Below are positions 2,764-29,908 of a stretch of 64,000 nt of DNA, piece by piece. Position 1 is the stretch's first letter; each line of letters opens with the position of its first letter. Origin of the DNA: Candidatus Poribacteria bacterium (lineage in GTDB: Bacteria > Poribacteria > WGA-4E > WGA-3G); assembly GCA_965198235.1 (NCBI GenBank), contig OZ240248.1, positions 832,001 through 896,000 on the forward strand, in the 5' to 3' direction. The notes below the pieces were generated by a model that was not told where the DNA came from, ran no database searches, and saw only the letters and a program-made list of their open reading frames with translations. A program made the position numbers and the translations under genes.

Positions 2764-4047
2764 ATGGATTTGACACGCCAACCACCACGTCGCCCTTCAA
2801 ATCTCGGAACCGCTGGGATTGTAGGTGTGGCACGGATGACAGACAAGGCACGCGCACATAACGCGGAAACTCTTGGTGATTATATCTACGGCGAGAGTTC
2901 TGGTTTGGATCAGCGCGTCTTAACGTTTTTAGGGATTTCCGCCGACGCTTACGCCGAAGCAGTTGACGAATACGACGATGCTGCGCTCGGGCACTGGGTA
3001 CTTGAAACAAGCGGAAAAACAGCAGCAGAGATTGCCGAGTTTAACGACGCTGCCCTCAGCCAACTGCCCGATACCGAAGGACACAAACAACGTTTGAAAG
3101 ACCGGATCGCTCGCTTCGCCCCAGGCAGAACCGACATTACAACGGTATTACAGTCCATGGAACTCGACGATTGGGGAAGCTTCTGGCAGGTCGACCTGAC
3201 TGCCGGACCGCCATGCAGTGCGCGCTCTAAAGACATCGCTGGCATTTGTGGTGTCGCACGGATGACAGACAAAGGGCGCGCTGAGCGTGCAGGAAAAATC
3301 GGTGAGTACCTATACGGCGACGATTCCGGGCAAGATGTACGTATTTTAGCGTTCCTCGGTATTTCAGCTGCAGATTTTCAGGAAGCAGCGGTCAACAACC
3401 CGAATAACCTCGAACTCGGGGCATGGGTCCTGGAAAACTGCGGTAAATCGCAGGACGAGATTGATGAATTCAACGAAACGTTGGTAAACTATGGACCCAA
3501 CGAAGCAACACGGGAACGGTTTGAAGCGCGATGTCAAGAAGTAGATCCGACCCGCACAGACATCACCACGTGGGTAGCACTTCAGGACGCGGACGATCAG
3601 TTGAGTTTCGGTATTGTCGACCTCAACCGCCGCGCACCACGGAGCCCCTACAACATGGATGTCTACGGAATGGTTCAGCTCGCACGGTTGATTGACAAAG
3701 GCAGAGCATTCAATGGCAACACACTCGGTGCTTATTTTTATGGTGAAGATTCCGGGATTGACCGAGCAACACTCGCTTTCCTTGGTATATCCGCAGCAGA
3801 ATTTAATGAAGCATTGAAAACTTTGGCAACCGATACAGAGGTTGAGGCGTGGCTGAAGGCAAATCATCCGAAAAGCGAAGCAGAGATTGAAGCCTATAAC
3901 GAACGCATGAAGCAAATGGGTCCTACAACTGAAAGACACAAGGCAATGATGGCGAAGATGCTCAGCCGGATCGCTCCAGAGCGTACGGACATCAATACAT
4001 GGTTCGCACTGATGGACCTTGATGATGAGAAGACTTTTGCGTTGTAA
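2764..4047 (+). CDS. Protein with three tandem DUF5069-like domains
   Basis: Three ~140-aa repeats: DL..PPR/S....G...ARxxDKxRA...G.Y.YG.xSGxD...L.FLGIS...EI.EFN...RTDI.TW...D.DD. Confidence 0.8.
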   Translation: MDLTRQPPRRPSNLGTAGIVGVARMTDKARAHNAETLGDYIYGESSGLDQRVLTFLGISADAYAEAVDEYDDAALGHWVLETSGKTAAEIAEFNDAALSQLPDTEGHKQRLKDRIARFAPGRTDITTVLQSMELDDWGSFWQVDLTAGPPCSARSKDIAGICGVARMTDKGRAERAGKIGEYLYGDDSGQDVRILAFLGISAADFQEAAVNNPNNLELGAWVLENCGKSQDEIDEFNETLVNYGPNEATRERFEARCQEVDPTRTDITTWVALQDADDQLSFGIVDLNRRAPRSPYNMDVYGMVQLARLIDKGRAFNGNTLGAYFYGEDSGIDRATLAFLGISAAEFNEALKTLATDTEVEAWLKANHPKSEAEIEAYNERMKQMGPTTERHKAMMAKMLSRIAPERTDINTWFALMDLDDEKTFAL

Positions 4048-4147
4048 ACAGGACATCGAGAAATTGACAAAGCTGTCAGCACGTCCGGTTTGTGACAGGC
4101 AGGCAGCTTCCTTTGTTTTGGTGTAGCCTCTCCATGGAGCGTGAACA

Positions 4148-21166: not shown

Positions 21167-21177
21167 ATAATGAAATG

Positions 21178-21260
21178 ACATTGTGGGGTGCTCTTATCTG
21201 CTTGAGAGCTGAGAAAACACCCATTGAACCTGATCTGGATCATACCAGCGTAGGGAAATA
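21178..21260 (+). ncRNA. TPP riboswitch
   Basis: GGGGTGC..CTGAGA..ACCC.TTGAACCTGATCTGGATCATACCAGCGTAGGGAA; upstream of thiamine genes. Confidence 0.95.
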
Positions 21261-21492
21261 TGAAGAAGGGCAATAAAACGCTGTTCCTTCTTAAGCGACT
21301 TTAGCAATTGGGACATAGAAGTTGTACTCTCAATTGTAAGCCTGCAGGCGAGGCACTTAACCCCGCTATATGAGGCACGAAGCCGCTTCCTTTTTGGTGT
21401 TGCCACGGCTGCTAATAGAGCCACTAGCGGACGGGCATGTTTCCCATATCCAAAATGGAAGACGGCTTTTTGTTGTTAAGGAACAGATACCA

Positions 21493-23488: not shown

Positions 23489-23680
23489 TTTTTTAACTAT
23501 TAAGTTTTTGCGCATCGTTCCAAATGTAAAGCAAAGACAAATTTTGCCGCGTGTGGGCAAAATTTCGTTTCACGATGGTTTCTGGTGAAACTTTCGTTCG
23601 CCTCTAAAAAGGTGCGGACGATTCACCAAAACCTGCCCGAAATGAAATGGAGGGCAGCCCAGGCACCCATAATTAGAAAA
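23489..23680 (-). repeat. Modular intergenic repeat, copy R2 (inverted relative to R1)
   Basis: Reverse complement aligns with R1 at both arms. Confidence 0.85.
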
Positions 23681-24820
23681 ATGAAAAATACAAAGATTCT
23701 CATCATCGGTGGTGGTGTGATTGGCCTCGGTATCGGGTGGCAGCTTGCGAAATCGGGTGCCTCCGTCACCATTTATGATCGTGCTGAAGCCGGACGCGCC
23801 GCTTCTTGGGCAGCCGCTGGGATGCTCGCGCCACTCGCCGAGGCACATACCGAAGAACCGGAACTGTTGAAACTGGGTTGCCAAAGTTTAGCACTCTATC
23901 CGCAATGGGTTCGGGAATTAGAGGCGGATGCCGAGATGGACATCGGGTATCGGGTGGAAGGCACTCTGATCATCGGGTTAGAACCTGATGATACACACCA
24001 ACTTCGGCATCTTTACGCCTCACAACAAGATTTAGGGCTGGATGTCGAATGGTTGACCGGACGAGAGGCGCGTGAAATCGAACCCGCCCTTTCGCCGCGC
24101 GCGACTGCAGCTATCCGCTGCGAGAGCGACCATCAGGTCGATAACCGACTGATGGTAAAAGCACTCCAGCGCGCCTATCAGAGATGCGGCGGTGTGCTAC
24201 ATGAAAACACCCCAGTCGAAGGTATTCACGTCGAAAATGGGACCGCGACCGGGATAGATGCCCGAGATAGCGGGAAACATAACGGAGATGTTATCGTGCT
24301 GTCAGCAGGATGTGAATCTGCCCAAATTCAGGGACTTCCAGATGCCATCCGTCCGCCGGTGCGCCCTGTGAAAGGACAGATGTTGGCGTTGCAAATGGAA
24401 GATGGTATCACGGTTAAAAACGTCGTCCGCACCGTCAGAGCAAGGTATCCGATGTCGGTATATTTGGTGCCGCGAACCGATGGCAGGCTCATCGTCGGTG
24501 CGACAAGTGAGGAAATGGGATTTGACACGCGTTTGACTGCTGGCGGTGTGTTTGAGCTACTCCGCGGCGCATGGGAAGCGGTGCCGGGTGTTTATGAACT
24601 TCCGCTTCTGGAAACATGGACAGGTTTACGTCCCGGTAGCAGAGACAATGCCCCCATACTTGGCGAAACGCCCATTGAGAATCTGATATACGCCACGGGA
24701 CATTACCGCAACGGCATCTTACTCACACCCATCACGGCTTATGAGATCTCCAAACTGATTCTGACCGGTGAGACTTCAGAGACAATCGCCCCATTTCAGT
24801 TAGACAGATTTCTGGCGTAA
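23681..24820 (+). CDS. thiO: Glycine oxidase
   Basis: GGGVIG, ASWAAAGML, PVKGQM, GLRP, GHYRNGILL; adjacent to thiS/thiG. Confidence 0.95.
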   Translation: MKNTKILIIGGGVIGLGIGWQLAKSGASVTIYDRAEAGRAASWAAAGMLAPLAEAHTEEPELLKLGCQSLALYPQWVRELEADAEMDIGYRVEGTLIIGLEPDDTHQLRHLYASQQDLGLDVEWLTGREAREIEPALSPRATAAIRCESDHQVDNRLMVKALQRAYQRCGGVLHENTPVEGIHVENGTATGIDARDSGKHNGDVIVLSAGCESAQIQGLPDAIRPPVRPVKGQMLALQMEDGITVKNVVRTVRARYPMSVYLVPRTDGRLIVGATSEEMGFDTRLTAGGVFELLRGAWEAVPGVYELPLLETWTGLRPGSRDNAPILGETPIENLIYATGHYRNGILLTPITAYEISKLILTGETSETIAPFQLDRFLA

Positions 24821-24833
24821 CTGGAGTTAAGTT

Positions 24834-25040
24834 ATGAAGATACACGTTAATAGCGAAGAAAAAACGGTTCGTCCGAATTTAAATGTCCACGATCTGATCA
24901 TCGCTTTAGAAATGGATCCAACGCAGTCGGGCATCGCTGTCGCCGTGGATCGGGAAGTTATCCCGAAAACGGAGTGGCAAGCGACGGAACTTCGCGAGAA
25001 CAGTGAAGTTGAGATTATACGCGCCGTCCAAGGCGGGTAA
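24834..25040 (+). CDS. thiS: Sulfur carrier protein
   Basis: Ubiquitin-like fold, C-terminal AVQGG. Confidence 0.95.
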   Translation: MKIHVNSEEKTVRPNLNVHDLIIALEMDPTQSGIAVAVDREVIPKTEWQATELRENSEVEIIRAVQGG

Positions 25041-25246: not shown

Positions 25247-26017
25247 ATGCAAGAATTCAAAATCGCCGACCAGACATACACATCAAGACTACTTATCGGA
25301 ACAGCAGGGTATCCGAATTTCCACATAATGACGGAGTCTATTGCCGCGAGCGGTGCCGAAATTGCGACGGTGTCAATGCGCCGCGTGAAATTTACAGATA
25401 CACCCGGTGAGAATTTGTTCGCGCTTCTACGCGAACGGGGTATGACGATCCTCCCAAACACTGCTGGTTGTTTCACAGCAAAAGACGCGATTCTAACATC
25501 GAACCTCGCGAGAGAGGCACTTGAGACACCGCTCATCAAACTCGAAGTTATTGGAGATGAGGAGACCCTGTTTCCGGATGTAGAGCAGCTGCTCAGTGCT
25601 GCGGAGATACTCGTGAAAGACGGCTTCACTGTGCTTCCGTATTGCAACGACGATCCGATTACCTGTAAGAAATTAGAAGACATTGGCTGTGCGGCAGTGA
25701 TGCCGTTAGGTGCCCCGATAGGCTCAGGAATGGGCATCCGCAATCCGTATAATATTCAGATTATCCGAGATCTTGTGCAAGTGCCGCTCATTGTGGATGC
25801 TGGAGTTGGGACGGCATCGGATGCAGCGATAGCGATGGAGTTAGGCTGTGACGGTGTCCTGCTCAACACAGCAGTAGCGAAAGCACACCGTCCTGTACTG
25901 ATGGCGGAGGCGATGAAAAAAGCAGTCGAAGCGGGTAGAGCGGCGTTTTTAGCTGGACGCATCCCCCGGAAACTTTACGCGACCGCCTCAAGCCCACAGG
26001 ACGGAATGATTGAGTGA
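25247..26017 (+). CDS. thiG: Thiazole synthase
   Basis: [39 protein letters not shown]. Confidence 0.97.
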
Positions 26018-26432
26018 TAGCACCCACTACCTAAAGGTAGGGGCTTCGGTTTCATAGCAACTGCGGTTTTCTCAGAGAGTCTACCGTCTTATTATCGCTC
26101 CACCAGCAGGCAATTCCCCTATATCCTGAAAGAAGTGGATACAGGGCAGATCGTGCGGAAACTTTCACGGCTATCCCTGCCTGCAAAAGAAAAGGGGTGG
26201 TTGAGAGAGAGGTATCTCGGAAACCACCTAAAGGTTGCAGAGAATTACCTTCTACTCTCAACTCCGTAGCAGCGACCAACGTGCAGGATTTCACCTCTGC
26301 TCCGAAACTTACGGACTGCTACCGAAAATGTTTTTAGCAAGGTCTCACTTGCAACTTGTTTGTGCCACCTCTGACAGTGGTGGACAACACCTGCACAAGG
26401 TGTGCAGGGTCAGAGCGTTGTCCAGCAAGTTA
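26014..26432 (-). ncRNA. Putative large structured ncRNA / non-autonomous IS200/IS605-type element (omegaRNA-like 3' end)
   Basis: Perfect promoter upstream; more than 10 helices; G-U wobbles fit the minus strand; ends GAAGCCCCTACCTTTAGGTAGTGGGTGCTATCAC; no credible ORF. Confidence 0.7.
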
Positions 26433-26438
26433 CGTATA

Positions 26439-26467
26439 ATTATACCACATTTTTGACTGAATGTCAA
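26439..26467 (-). promoter_or_regulatory. Consensus sigma70 promoter driving the putative ncRNA
   Basis: TTGACA (26467-26462) - 17 bp - TATAAT (26444-26439), with extended -10 TG. Confidence 0.85.
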
Positions 26468-26496
26468 ATATATTTTGGCGTTTTGGTCCTTTCCAA

Positions 26497-26829
26497 GAGG
26501 ATAAAATTGATCGGGAAACCGGACTCAAAGCAATAGCAGAAATTCAAAAAGTAAACACCGAGGCAGAAGTAAAGCGTAAGCGCATATCCAAACTGAAAAC
26601 TGACATTTGTAGAAATGGAAAACCACAGATAAGACGTGTCCGAGAGATCGCAGATGACGACCTTTACCGACTTGGATTTGAATTGCTTACAGACGAACTT
26701 GGACTGGGAGGAGTGTCTCGTTTCCTCAGATTATGCGAACCCGGACGTGGTATCTACGCCGTTGACCGGTACAAAAACCCTAAATTAATTGAACAAACCT
26801 GCAAGGAAGAACAGAAACGAGCCTCGTAG
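26497..26829 (+). pseudogene. 5'-truncated small helical (antitoxin-like) protein gene
   Basis: DDLYRLGFELLTDELGLGGVSRFLRLCEPGRG.Y; the ORF-track start at 26461 lies inside the opposite-strand promoter. Confidence 0.45.
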
Positions 26830-26868
26830 AAGTAGTATCTTCGTCAACTCAAGAATTGGAGTCGGTGT

Positions 26869-28095
26869 GTGAAAAAAAGATCTCACTTTTTCTGGATATG
26901 CCTCATCATTTTTACGCAACTCGTAAGCAGCGTCCTTTTATCCGAGATGCAAAGTGCTTTTGCACAACTCCAGAGCGAATTCGGACAGAGCCTTTTAGAA
27001 AGAAAACCCGAAACCTCTGAAAGCGATCCCGCAGAACTTACAATTAACTCCCACTTCTCTAATACATTTAATAACCACATTGAATTCGGTCTGAGCGTAG
27101 ACCCTTACACCAGTGGTCTTGCGGGTGAGGAAGACTCACAACTCGAAGGCATGATTAACCGCTTCGGTATTAATCTACTCGGGGATTTACCGATAACTAA
27201 CAAACTCCGGCTCAAATTGCAATACGCGCCACAAGTTGAAAACTACACCGGTGCTGACGGAAAACTCAACGAATTCGATGCGTTTAGCGACGTAGTCTTA
27301 ACCGAGCTTAGTTTCCAACCCGTTGCGACTTTACCACCTCTCGTTACCTCCCACCAACTGCAACGTTTCGTGCGAACTTCAAACGTTTATAACAACATCG
27401 ATAGACAATTTGGTCTTCGCTTCGGACGCGTCCTGGAATACAATCTGCGGTTACACCGATTCGACGATGAAGATACGCGAAGAGAGGACTTTCTACTTGT
27501 CGGCTCTACCAGCCATACAATGACTGCACGCTTGCAATTTGGGATTCTTAAACAGATCCTTGGTAAACTGGAATATGGGATAGAAGATAGTAGCTACCAA
27601 ACCAATTTGAATAATCTCATCTTAGGTGTGACAGGACTTGAAGACGATGAACCTCGAAACGATTGGAGACACATCGGCTCTGCAAAACTAATACAGGTAG
27701 CAAAGGATCGACTCGTGTTTCAGGAAGAGATCAACCTATTTCTGAATCGTTCCAATGTCGATTTCTTTAACTTCGTTAGTACTGAAGTAGCAGCGAGTTC
27801 TTTTTACCGACTTGAGACAGGACGGTGGATACGGCTTCGATTCTCCAGACTGTGGGTACAGTTTGAAGGTAGACAGATTCCGGACGAGACTGGATATATA
27901 CCGGAAAACGCACCAAACCGTCGTGACACACAGATAGGTGCGAATGTGCAGTTGAATTGGGAATTTAATCCATATCTAACACTCAACGCCGATTATCAGA
28001 TTAGCCAGAACCACACGAATGAGATAGATCCACTGCTCGATTTTCTCAACTACACACATACCATTGCGACTATCACGCTCCGCGGTCAGTATTGA
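26869..28095 (+). CDS. Putative outer-membrane beta-barrel protein
   Basis: Signal peptide, amphipathic strands, C-terminal ITLRGQY. Confidence 0.65.
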   Translation: MKKRSHFFWICLIIFTQLVSSVLLSEMQSAFAQLQSEFGQSLLERKPETSESDPAELTINSHFSNTFNNHIEFGLSVDPYTSGLAGEEDSQLEGMINRFGINLLGDLPITNKLRLKLQYAPQVENYTGADGKLNEFDAFSDVVLTELSFQPVATLPPLVTSHQLQRFVRTSNVYNNIDRQFGLRFGRVLEYNLRLHRFDDEDTRREDFLLVGSTSHTMTARLQFGILKQILGKLEYGIEDSSYQTNLNNLILGVTGLEDDEPRNDWRHIGSAKLIQVAKDRLVFQEEINLFLNRSNVDFFNFVSTEVAASSFYRLETGRWIRLRFSRLWVQFEGRQIPDETGYIPENAPNRRDTQIGANVQLNWEFNPYLTLNADYQISQNHTNEIDPLLDFLNYTHTIATITLRGQY

Positions 28096-28134
28096 AGCGA
28101 TATGCTTCTTTCGTATCTCCAGTTCAGGCTATTG

Positions 28135-29676
28135 CTACCGCTCCCCCTTAAATAGCTTCAACCTCCCCTCAGATGCCACCAGCGTATAACATGCCGCAAT
28201 TGCCTCGGCGACAATAGGTTCGTCCGGGGTGTCCCACAGCAATAGATAATCTACATTGTCAGCATAATCGCAGAGGTCAATCTTTTCGGGGTGCCAGTGC
28301 ACGACCTGCACCCACTCCTTCTCCTCTAATGGGGTCTCAAAATCGGCGTTGAATCGGATTGGAAAGTAGTCGAACTGTATTTCATAGTTGCCGAGGTTGA
28401 TGCATCCATTGTCAAGGCAATAGTAATTGGCAGCGTTGACAAAGATGCCTACACGCTTGGAGCTACCTCGCGGATCAAAGTGCAGCGGAAGGATGACCTT
28501 GTTCTTCCCAACCCGCTGTACAAAAGCGTTAAACTCGCGTATCTCGGCGTTGAGATTCCTGAAGAGAATGCCAACATAGAGGATGTTAAGGAGCGCGAGA
28601 AGTATGACTATCGCTGCGAATACGCGTCTCCATGGAAGAGGATCAGGAACACGAAACCATGCAAATATGGCGAGGACAGCCAAAATAGCGAGCCTGTCAT
28701 TAACCCAGCCACCGGGACCTATAGAGTTCGGCAAAATAAAATAAAGCCCGAAAAGTACACCAGCAAGACAGAGAAATGCCCTTTGTCCGAGGTATCCCTC
28801 TTCGGTGGCTCTCCTATTCTGCCAGATTGTTACAGCGGCAAGAAAGAGCAGGAAGACAGAGACCGCAGCAGAAATCCAACTTGGAGGTTCGGCGTAGGCT
28901 ACAAGGACGTGCATACCGATTAAGTTATTGAATAACTCTCCGATCCGTCCGATTCCAAATTCGGGAGGTTTTCCTGCAAGGAGATCAGAGGTAGGAAGAT
29001 AGACAAGGATGAGTACAGCTGCAGGTAGCAGATAACACCCTGTAATCAGGATTCGCTTGAGGTCACGCTTGAAATAGAACAGTGCCAGCAAGGCTATAGA
29101 GAACAGAATGAAAGCGTATGAGATGAGGTGCGCAAAATAGGTAATAACGATAAGCAGATTGAGCAGAATAATCCGTGTCCTGTTCATCTCATCCTTGTGT
29201 TTCCACCAGTAACCAAGTGCAAGGAAAAAGAGAGGCACGCTGACAGCAAAATTATAGAAGCCCATGAGAAAGAGGTAATTATAGATAAAGGTAAAACTGA
29301 GTATTACGAGAGGATGTCGTCCGCGTTGGACAGCCTCGAGAAAATAGTGGATTGCAAGAGGGAACAGGATGACATAGAGGCTCAGAAAAATTTTCTCAGC
29401 AACGAGAGGCGGGAAGACGAACATTAACATCGCTAACGAAAAGTGGGAAAGCCAGTTAGGAAAAGGGTACCAGTTAATCTCGTAATAGTCGCGAAACTGA
29501 TATTCTGGGTTGTTATACTCAGTCAAAATTTGCGAGTTATAAACATGGCTCACTCCATCTTGTGTTGGAAAATAGGGGAACAACCATATCGGTAGTAAAT
29601 AGACGAGGATTAGCGCACCAATCAAAAGCACCCCCCTTTTATGTAGAAGTGTGTAGAAGCGAGAAAAGAATGTCAT
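28135..29676 (-). CDS. Polytopic membrane protein, GT-C glycosyltransferase-like
   Basis: PTQDGVSH loop after TM1, GFYNF, many TM helices, soluble C-terminal domain. Confidence 0.7.
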   Translation of the reverse strand: MTFFSRFYTLLHKRGVLLIGALILVYLLPIWLFPYFPTQDGVSHVYNSQILTEYNNPEYQFRDYYEINWYPFPNWLSHFSLAMLMFVFPPLVAEKIFLSLYVILFPLAIHYFLEAVQRGRHPLVILSFTFIYNYLFLMGFYNFAVSVPLFFLALGYWWKHKDEMNRTRIILLNLLIVITYFAHLISYAFILFSIALLALFYFKRDLKRILITGCYLLPAAVLILVYLPTSDLLAGKPPEFGIGRIGELFNNLIGMHVLVAYAEPPSWISAAVSVFLLFLAAVTIWQNRRATEEGYLGQRAFLCLAGVLFGLYFILPNSIGPGGWVNDRLAILAVLAIFAWFRVPDPLPWRRVFAAIVILLALLNILYVGILFRNLNAEIREFNAFVQRVGKNKVILPLHFDPRGSSKRVGIFVNAANYYCLDNGCINLGNYEIQFDYFPIRFNADFETPLEEKEWVQVVHWHPEKIDLCDYADNVDYLLLWDTPDEPIVAEAIAACYTLVASEGRLKLFKGER

Positions 29677-29908
29677 CGTTTTTCCCTTTATCTTATTTTG
29701 ACGTAACTCGTAGGTTTCCAAAACTTGCTGTTAAAAGATCAATCTTGAAATTTTTAGGGCTTCAGTTATAATGGTATCATGTTTTCACATTTTGTGAATA
29801 ACATTTTTGCCTATCCTACAAAATATATTGGTCGCTTTGCACCTTAATAAAAGCGGCTTTTTAGGAATCATTATTTTTTCGAGGTGCAAATTATCGGAGA
29901 ATAATTTC

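Follow-up and report, generated by a model that had tools for sequence, protein, structure and literature searches.

The window analysed here is a stretch of 64,000 nucleotides from a Candidatus Poribacteria bacterium (assembly GCA_965198235.1, contig OZ240248.1, positions 832,001 to 896,000 of the forward strand). It contains the gene thiG on the plus strand and, exactly on the stop codon of this gene, a transposon-derived element of 519 nt on the minus strand. The element is best explained as a non-autonomous, protein-less derivative of a tnpB-bearing insertion sequence (IS) of the IS200/IS605 family, similar to palindrome-associated transposable elements (PATEs) and miniature inverted-repeat transposable elements (MITEs). 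We consider this explanation likely, a grade that applies to it as a whole: to the identity and origin of the element, the parts kept, their working in trans and the stranding of the copy at thiG. The locus comprises the following features, with positions counted from the first letter of the window:

25247-26017, plus strand: thiG (Pfam ThiG, 3.1e-111; translation).
26014-26532, minus strand: the whole element, 519 nt (empty-site comparison over 30 thiG loci; sharp right end).
26477-26532, minus strand: left-end remnant without subterminal hairpin (comparison with 43 copies).
26439-26467, minus strand: sigma-70-type promoter TTGACA-17-(TG)-TATAAT (12 of 12 matches and TG before the -10 hexamer).
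26337-26433, minus strand: leader with the helices P1 (in two registers), P2, P3 and P4 and an H-type pseudoknot (covariance model R1, covariation, nhmmer comparison with the 5' untranslated regions, UTRs, of tnpB).
26266-26323, minus strand: middle module, in which an outer helix GGTAGCAG/CTGCTAC surrounds a hairpin whose loop, GGTGAAA, is conserved (helices 6-9 of the tested structure).
26198-26265, minus strand: private insertion of 68 nt, itself a long hairpin (a gap in the other 42 copies of alignment A1).
26014-26187, minus strand: predicted omegaRNA scaffold, formed by the last ~10 tnpB codons and then the right end, ending with TATCAC (alignment to five full-length right ends; covariation of helices 11-15).
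26178-26184 with 26106-26112, minus strand: closing helix S1 of the scaffold (covariation).
26171-26175 with 26016-26020, minus strand: pseudoknot PK2 (covariation).
26116-26147, minus strand: S2 (covariation).
26064-26086, minus strand: scaffold hairpin (part of the scaffold model).
26023-26043, minus strand: right-end subterminal hairpin CCCCTACC-TTTA-GGTAGTGGG (helix 15; 95.9 % paired, compensatory change in 5 of 8 pairs).
25994-26013, minus strand: predicted guide, the first ~16-20 nt past the right end (by position, in analogy with the ISDra2 omegaRNA).

The borders were determined by comparison with the 3' ends of thiG in the genus, for which 31 genomes were searched and 30 gave a match. 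Empty thiG sites were found in relatives: 27 of the 30 loci had no element end at the junction, and ...ATGATTGA continued uninterrupted into ATAG or GTAA. In the window, the element is placed between the thiG end ...ATGATTGA and the ancestral ATAGCAG... spacer. Its terminus ...GCTATCAC lies at 26014 and forms an edge that is equally sharp in 13 copies of the own genome, whose hand-aligned right ends have ...TATCAC or a similar variant as their last bases and differ from the next base onwards. The thiG spacer of the relatives (ATAGCAGCAAG...) picks up again in the window at 26533 (ATAGCAGAAAT...), thus the element covers 26014-26532 and extends beyond position 26467, where the original prediction, made from the sequence alone, had set its limit. 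A target duplication was not present at the junctions of the thiG site, as judged against the empty relatives. The stop codon of thiG, TGA at 26015-26017, is formed by the last bases of the element, where the relatives end with GAA TAG or GAG TAA; the overlap of the terminal TCAC with this stop codon had been seen before. The last codon was changed from GAA to GAG (synonymous) and the stop from TAG to TGA, leaving the protein end GMIE unaltered.

The last ~100 nt of the element (26014-26115) recurred about 12 times in the own genome, the promoter region several times. Copies of the right end were located ~130 nt downstream of open reading frames (ORFs) of 370 amino acids with OrfB_IS605 and Cas12f1-like_TNB domains, and one of these full-length copies had in addition an upstream Y1_Tnp gene (5.2e-38). 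Examples are the full-length copy at G000:C1:4634945-4636328, with its ORF of 370 amino acids, and the Y1 TnpA at G000:C1:119838-120191. The own genome contained 40 TnpB-homologous segments (tblastn) and six Y1_Tnp matches; Y1 transposase genes were present in five of five genomes checked, including the copy-rich genomes G078, G079 and G046. Hence tnpB and tnpA loci with the same end exist in the own genome, and the family shares its ends with copies encoding Y1 TnpA, TnpB or both. This supported the proposal of an IS200/IS605 right end of the TnpB omegaRNA type, which is shared with copies encoding TnpB, one of them with Y1 TnpA. A second short copy was found in the own genome (G000:C1:3783622-3784033). 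When the leader and the middle module served as query, 34 of the 65 genomes from the genus gave a match, and a single genome held up to 11 copies. Thirty-five of the 40 fetched regions were complete elements, in which promoter and right end delimit 408-429 nt; with eight copies found earlier they constituted the 43 distinct copies from the genus in alignment A1. All 43 had different flanks. The element is thus one copy of a dispersed family with sharp ends, and the term mobile RNA used at first has to be replaced by that of a DNA transposon derivative of the PATE/MITE type.

The absence of a protein gene, also stated in the original prediction, was substantiated. The longest ORFs in the 43 copies comprised 38-110 amino acids and varied in strand and position, thus a conserved small ORF was rejected. 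In a blastx comparison with the TnpBs of the own genome the best E value was 0.69, revealing no remnant of tnpB beyond the last codons. The statement that neither tnpA nor tnpB occurs in the window was not contradicted for the neighbouring ORFs, a part of all window ORFs, which had no Pfam match.

The perfect minus-strand promoter (26467-26439) recognised at the outset was conserved throughout the family: its hexamers were invariant or nearly so in the 43 aligned copies and full-length tnpB copies likewise had them in their left ends. An imperfect left-end palindrome of the type CCCCATG-CTTTAG-CTTGCGGG was present 25-36 nt before the -35 region in 38 of 43 copies, counted by motif rather than by perfect stems. 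In 37 of these 38 copies, TTAT (21 copies) or TTAC (16 copies) was located 16-20 nt before the palindrome, at the point where the likeness between copies ends. At the level of the family, insertion thus occurs 3' of TTAT or TTAC and, as judged at the thiG site, without target duplication. A short repeat forming a hairpin of the type ATCAACGGTATGAATGCC...GGCATTC breaks the left-end palindrome of one short element (L074) and recurs beside it; it was observed also in genome G045 (L043), just after thiG, within a palindrome resembling a left end. Possibly, this is a further small mobile repeat with such hairpins as its target.

The minus strand of 26000-26440 had a minimum free energy of -149.1 kcal/mol (z = -2.75), and none of 100 shuffled sequences folded as well. 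Of the 81 pairs that RNAalifold predicted from A1, 42 showed compensatory change. For testing, both proposed pseudoknots were added to the structure and pairs involving the promoter were dropped. The resulting structure was paired in 97.3 % of 3458 cells, compared to 33.0-44.6 % with the partners slid by 1-3 columns. Changes on both sides were observed in 45 of 81 pairs versus 12-22 in the slid versions, and the covariation score was 0.378 versus 0.048-0.069. In a shuffle control, on four of the five measures none of 500 shuffles reached the structure; this control overstates the significance because copies that are related may pass it even if they have no structure, therefore weight was put on the slid-partner control as the fairer one. 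The nearly fully paired sequence with its listed helices, as proposed from the single copy, recurred in the 43-copy alignment, with the exception of the helix 26196-202/26222-28, which lies within the insertion private to the thiG-linked copy. G-U and U-G cells (173 of 3458) exceeded A-C and C-A cells (27), thus the structure belongs to the minus strand. This was the strand assigned in the original prediction on the basis of at least three G-U positions; the tested structure has two in this copy, the higher count having been made with a separate set of helices.

At the gathering score, Rfam 15 (4227 families) gave no match in the window other than the thiamine pyrophosphate (TPP) riboswitch, and thus none to a module of the element. 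At E <= 10, one match was obtained in 25800-28400, a chance-level small nucleolar RNA, and at E <= 1 eight further loci remained without a match. The library includes the IS605-orfB motifs, HEARO, the group I intron and small ribozymes, and in these searches no match to any of them was obtained.

The leader at the 5' end of the predicted RNA is, by sequence comparison, homologous to the 5'UTR of tnpB. An nhmmer profile of the short elements matched the region from the promoter to the tnpB start in full-length copies, and the end of the leader is a remnant of this start, with ACC TTG where tnpB copies have ACC ATG. The 7-bp pseudoknot between 26409-15 and 26369-75, proposed from a single copy, was 99.0 % paired in A1, with compensatory change in 4 of 7 pairs. 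A second alignment, A2, contained 55 leaders (39 from short elements, 14 linked to tnpB and 2 solo remnants); here 95.9 % of the cells were paired versus 34-45 % in slid versions, and 6 of 7 pseudoknot pairs showed compensatory change. The predicted helix P1 (26426-31/26353-58; 92.2 % paired) and the small hairpin 26337-41/26348-52 (85.1 %) both covaried, and the other register of P1 (26425-30/26347-52; 94.1 % paired) covaried equally. In 20 of 24 parsed leaders the complement of the 5' strand of P1 is tandemly doubled just before the ATG and varies together with the 5' strand. The tandem two-register P1 suggests a possible expression switch.

The covariance model R1, built on the leader, had 29 matches in the own genome: 25 just upstream of TnpB-homologous segments, two in short elements and two in remnants, as assigned by eye from the coordinates relative to the tblastn segments. 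The thiG-linked leader was the best of the 29 matches (94.8 bits). The remnants (G000:C1:1877794-1877884, 66.2 bits; 537327-537413, 50.6 bits) are solo truncated leaders without a right end; the former has to be seen as a broken short element because the start of the middle module is retained. In a sample of the phylum, R1 matched in 94 of 151 genomes (the own genome, G000, counted). Matches occurred in all 56 genomes of the genus, in 27 of 38 genomes of a sister genus and in 7 of 20 genomes from one genus of another family; 24 genomes of the six remaining families gave no match. In all, the leader had more than 1,100 matches. The leader spans TnpB subfamilies that are only ~40-50 % identical at the protein level.

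A long, pseudoknotted RNA on an IS end raises the question whether the element is a small version of an IStron or carries some other ribozyme, self-splicing or self-cleaving, joined to that end. IStrons, which combine a group I intron with tnpB on IS605/IS607-type elements, exist according to the available part of Zedaveinyte et al. (10.1101/2023.11.20.567912), and they share with the present element the order of a long structured 5' RNA and a 3' omegaRNA. The present RNA, however, matched neither the group I intron nor a small ribozyme in the Rfam searches, and in the full-length copies its 5' structure is a 5'UTR that ends at the start codon. A 5' exon does not exist because transcription starts inside the element. 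The ribozyme reading, with its chance close to negligible, was rejected.

Between the leader and the scaffold the element contains the middle module of ~60-75 nt with conserved internal loops; the family form includes a further hairpin that is absent from the thiG-linked copy. Helices 6-9 were 95-100 % paired, with compensatory change in 9 of 14 pairs, and compensatory change extended across helices 6-10 of the module. In full-length copies the module had no nhmmer match; it was seen only in protein-less copies. If translated, the compensatory changes in the middle hairpin (AGA/CTG versus GGA/CCG) would not be synonymous and would alter amino acids in any frame covering them. The 68-nt private insertion beside the module had no other match in the own genome. 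A long inverted repeat, GTTGAGAG...CTCTCTCAAC, makes up this insertion and surrounds the hairpin AACC-TTTA-GGTGG, which is similar to the loop of IS end palindromes. For the tnpB leader and the middle module, no description was found in Rfam or in literature searches on tnpB 5'UTR structure and TnpB of sponge symbionts, which is no proof that none is in print.

The 3' ~170 nt are a complete TnpB omegaRNA scaffold as predicted from homology and covariation. Homology to five full-length copies begins in the last ~10 tnpB codons (...ILRAGIATT*) and continues to the terminus; in these copies the tnpB stop codon is located 130-132 nt before the element end, and S1 and PK2 begin in the last ~10 codons. 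Profile positions 216-397 matched downstream of tnpB genes (nhmmer). All 43 copies end with TATCAC, preceded by a subterminal palindrome, and the right-end hairpins of the 13 own-genome copies vary by compensatory substitution. PK2 (GATAG 26175-26171/CTATC 26020-26016), recognised early as a pairing of the terminal GCTATC with an internal GATAGC, was 99.5 % paired and covaried, with G:C replaced by C:G in three copies and A-U by G-U in eight. Counted from the element end, it joins positions -7 to -3 to -162 to -158. The layout is thus that of an omegaRNA: a scaffold that runs from the 3' part of tnpB through the right end up to the border, with a guide-proximal pseudoknot. The original prediction had considered the whole RNA as an omegaRNA of unusual length; the extra length is rather accounted for by the tnpB 5'UTR leader and the separate middle module. 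By its position, the guide would lie antisense to the final thiG codons, as originally proposed and in analogy with ISDra2.

IS200/IS605 ends work as hairpins in top-strand DNA, as stated in the available part of bioRxiv 10.1101/2023.03.14.532601, and the conserved pairings could act in this single-stranded DNA during TnpA transposition, not in RNA. The excess of 173 over 27 cells would suit G-T pairs in top-strand DNA as well as G-U pairs in RNA, and for the hairpins of the two ends a role as DNA signals is certain. The leader, however, begins just after a strong promoter and in full-length copies stops at the tnpB start codon, and the 3' domain fits an omegaRNA with its guide-proximal pseudoknot. 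We know of no TnpA that needs several hundred nucleotides of internal structure, and a function of the fold in DNA alone is regarded as very unlikely.

RNA data consisted of contigs from four sponge metatranscriptome runs of one study, evaluated as summed contig depth; the runs containing the stretch were labelled sponge metagenome. The depth was 3593-4118 over 26008-26091, 437-902 over 26092-26175 and 16-181 over the rest of the RNA. Over most of thiG it amounted to 0-57 (121 in one bin of one run), and beyond the left end to 0-11.5. A contig of 669 nt spans thiG and the first 28 nt of the element, thus the occupied allele was present in that sample. Right-end RNA of the family is abundant in the RNA libraries, a signal at the level of the family only, as processed omegaRNAs would give. 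The uncovered parts and two joints in X2 (26105/26188 to 26338) stem most likely from other copies without the private insertion, and nothing was drawn from them.

For the working of the family we infer the following. The element would descend from a tnpB-bearing one in which almost all of the tnpB ORF was lost. Retained parts are the left-end promoter, the pseudoknotted leader of ~95 nt, the middle module, and the last ~10 tnpB codons with the right end. The family has transposed repeatedly in the genus. The left-end promoter would drive a single RNA of roughly 420-440 nt, of which the 3' ~170 nt would be bound and possibly trimmed in trans by TnpB from full-length copies elsewhere, while TnpA, likewise supplied in trans, would move the element DNA. 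By reading on into the flank the RNA would obtain its guide, in this case antisense to the 3' end of thiG. Once excision had produced a scarless empty site, the complex would cleave it, and the element would be restored by recombination. The thiG-linked copy, having lost the left-end hairpin required by TnpA and gained the 68-nt insertion, is most likely stranded and may still be transcribed.

Several observations weigh against this explanation. The RNA depth is not specific for the locus because the right end is a repeat common to many copies and species, and the contigs show neither strand nor ends. The covariation among transposon copies reflects in part their shared descent. The thiG-linked copy itself is one of the 5 of 43 without the left-end palindrome motif, it adjoins CTAT instead of TTAT or TTAC, and the 68-nt insertion breaks into its middle module. 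The missing left-end hairpin and the CTAT render canonical excision by TnpA doubtful, and with it any homing role of the guide. The copy is probably no longer mobile, since the left-end hairpin is missing and the private insertion is present. The missing hairpin, the private insertion, the atypical junction and the two further truncated leader remnants in the genome would also suit a mere decaying remnant, with a fold inherited from active parents and an RNA that, if made, is inert. However, the promoter of this copy is perfect (12 of 12 with TG), its leader scored best in the own genome, its omegaRNA helices and PK2 are intact, and at the level of the family the fold has been kept by compensatory change. 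Mere decay is a possibility to be reckoned with, but a doubtful one.

The location of the promoter, which points into the 3' end of thiG with no terminator-like site on the minus strand in 25700-26900, raises the possibility of an antisense RNA. thiG closes a gene row (thiO-thiS-thiG) consisting of a DAO-family oxidoreductase (23585-24820), a small ORF (24834-25040) and thiG itself, behind a TPP riboswitch upstream of the row (RF00059, 70.5 bits, 21174-21274, plus strand). The main effect of the element would then be a modulation of thiG or the thi operon in cis, by convergent transcription. The 27 thiG loci of the genus without an element end argue against this, as does the occurrence of the family in dozens of unrelated contexts, in view of which an antisense effect would be a by-product. 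As the main function, antisense control is held to be very unlikely.

The thiG junction harbours a further element in two other species. G004 (L040) and G006 (L044) carry another, unrelated protein-less and promoter-bearing IS605-type element of ~430 nt at the identical thiG nucleotide (26013/26014) and in the same orientation, thus the site was struck at least two times independently. On the element strand, the site reads TTAY|TCAATCAT, and each time the stop codon was re-created from the element-terminal TCAC. The model R1 did not match this second family at thiG of G004 and G006, hence its 5' part differs. Downstream in the window, an ORF of 122 amino acids (26461-26829, plus strand) without Pfam match begins with 24 codons of transposon left-end sequence, and the assigned start is therefore probably not genuine; in its C-terminal part it is similar to a small gene 3' of thiG in several relatives. 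It is followed by an ORF of 408 amino acids (26869-28095, plus strand) with a signal-peptide-like start, kept beside thiG in G004 and G006, and by an ORF of 528 amino acids (28135-29721, minus strand) with many hydrophobic stretches; both had no Pfam match at E <= 0.01. For annotation it follows that an ORF beside the element starts in transposon sequence and that the thiG stop codon is transposon-derived.

A structured leader at a left end is not without precedent: in IS200, a stem-loop in the 5'UTR of tnpA hides the ribosome-binding site. The leader described here is similarly placed to control translation; by description, it differs in its gene, tnpB, in the pseudoknot and in the tandem two-register P1. 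The omegaRNA (reRNA) of ISDra2 TnpB, reportedly studied also by Karvelis and co-workers in 2021, is the nearest model for the 3' part. According to the available part of Nakagawa et al. 2023 (PMC10097598), its scaffold covers part of tnpB at the 3' end together with the right end, the flank serves as guide, and a pseudoknot gripped by TnpB joins positions -5 to -3 to -103 to -105. PK2 has a comparable position: nucleotides located 3-7 nt ahead of the guide are paired with the 5' region of the scaffold. The likeness is one of layout, with no similarity in sequence claimed; in contrast to ISDra2, with a scaffold of 116 nt and the target TTGAT (PMC10097598), the present scaffold comprises ~170 nt, has no tnpB in cis and is associated with TTAY.

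Gene-free IS200/IS605 elements of the PATE type are stated to "often encode omegaRNAs" for use in trans by TnpB of other elements (Meers et al. 2023, bioRxiv 10.1101/2023.03.14.532601, available part). As in the present family, these elements have no protein gene, share their ends with tnpB or tnpA copies, are inserted beside a constant motif of 4 nt with no duplication of the target, and carry a right-end omegaRNA scaffold that would need TnpB in trans. With regard to the preprint text, apart from its figures and supplements, the present family differs by a strong internal promoter, a pseudoknotted leader of ~95 nt and a further module in front of the omegaRNA, all kept by compensatory change. 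The novelty attributed to the element in the original prediction was overstated, because protein-less omegaRNA elements had been described in that preprint. The element represents a new family of an already described kind, protein-less omegaRNA carriers; what was not found described are the leader and the middle module.

A more far-reaching interpretation is put forward tentatively, with its chances well below even. The protein-less copies may be a self-promoted, RNA-only hyperparasite of TnpA and TnpB, with leader and middle module as functional RNAs of undescribed classes. The leader could be a new cis-regulatory switch that governs the translation of tnpB, perhaps in response to TnpB or its RNA or to a metabolite; the short elements could have kept it because it stabilises the RNA or aids its loading. 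The middle module could replace the contribution of the tnpB coding region to omegaRNA maturation.

The family constitutes a clean comparative case of a guide-RNA-only transposon, with 43 copies, a precise empty site, the TTAY target and border motifs, and an omegaRNA model backed by covariation. From these data, the TnpB systems of this lineage could be reconstituted. If the leader controls the translation of tnpB, it would bear on the restraint of these very abundant nucleases.

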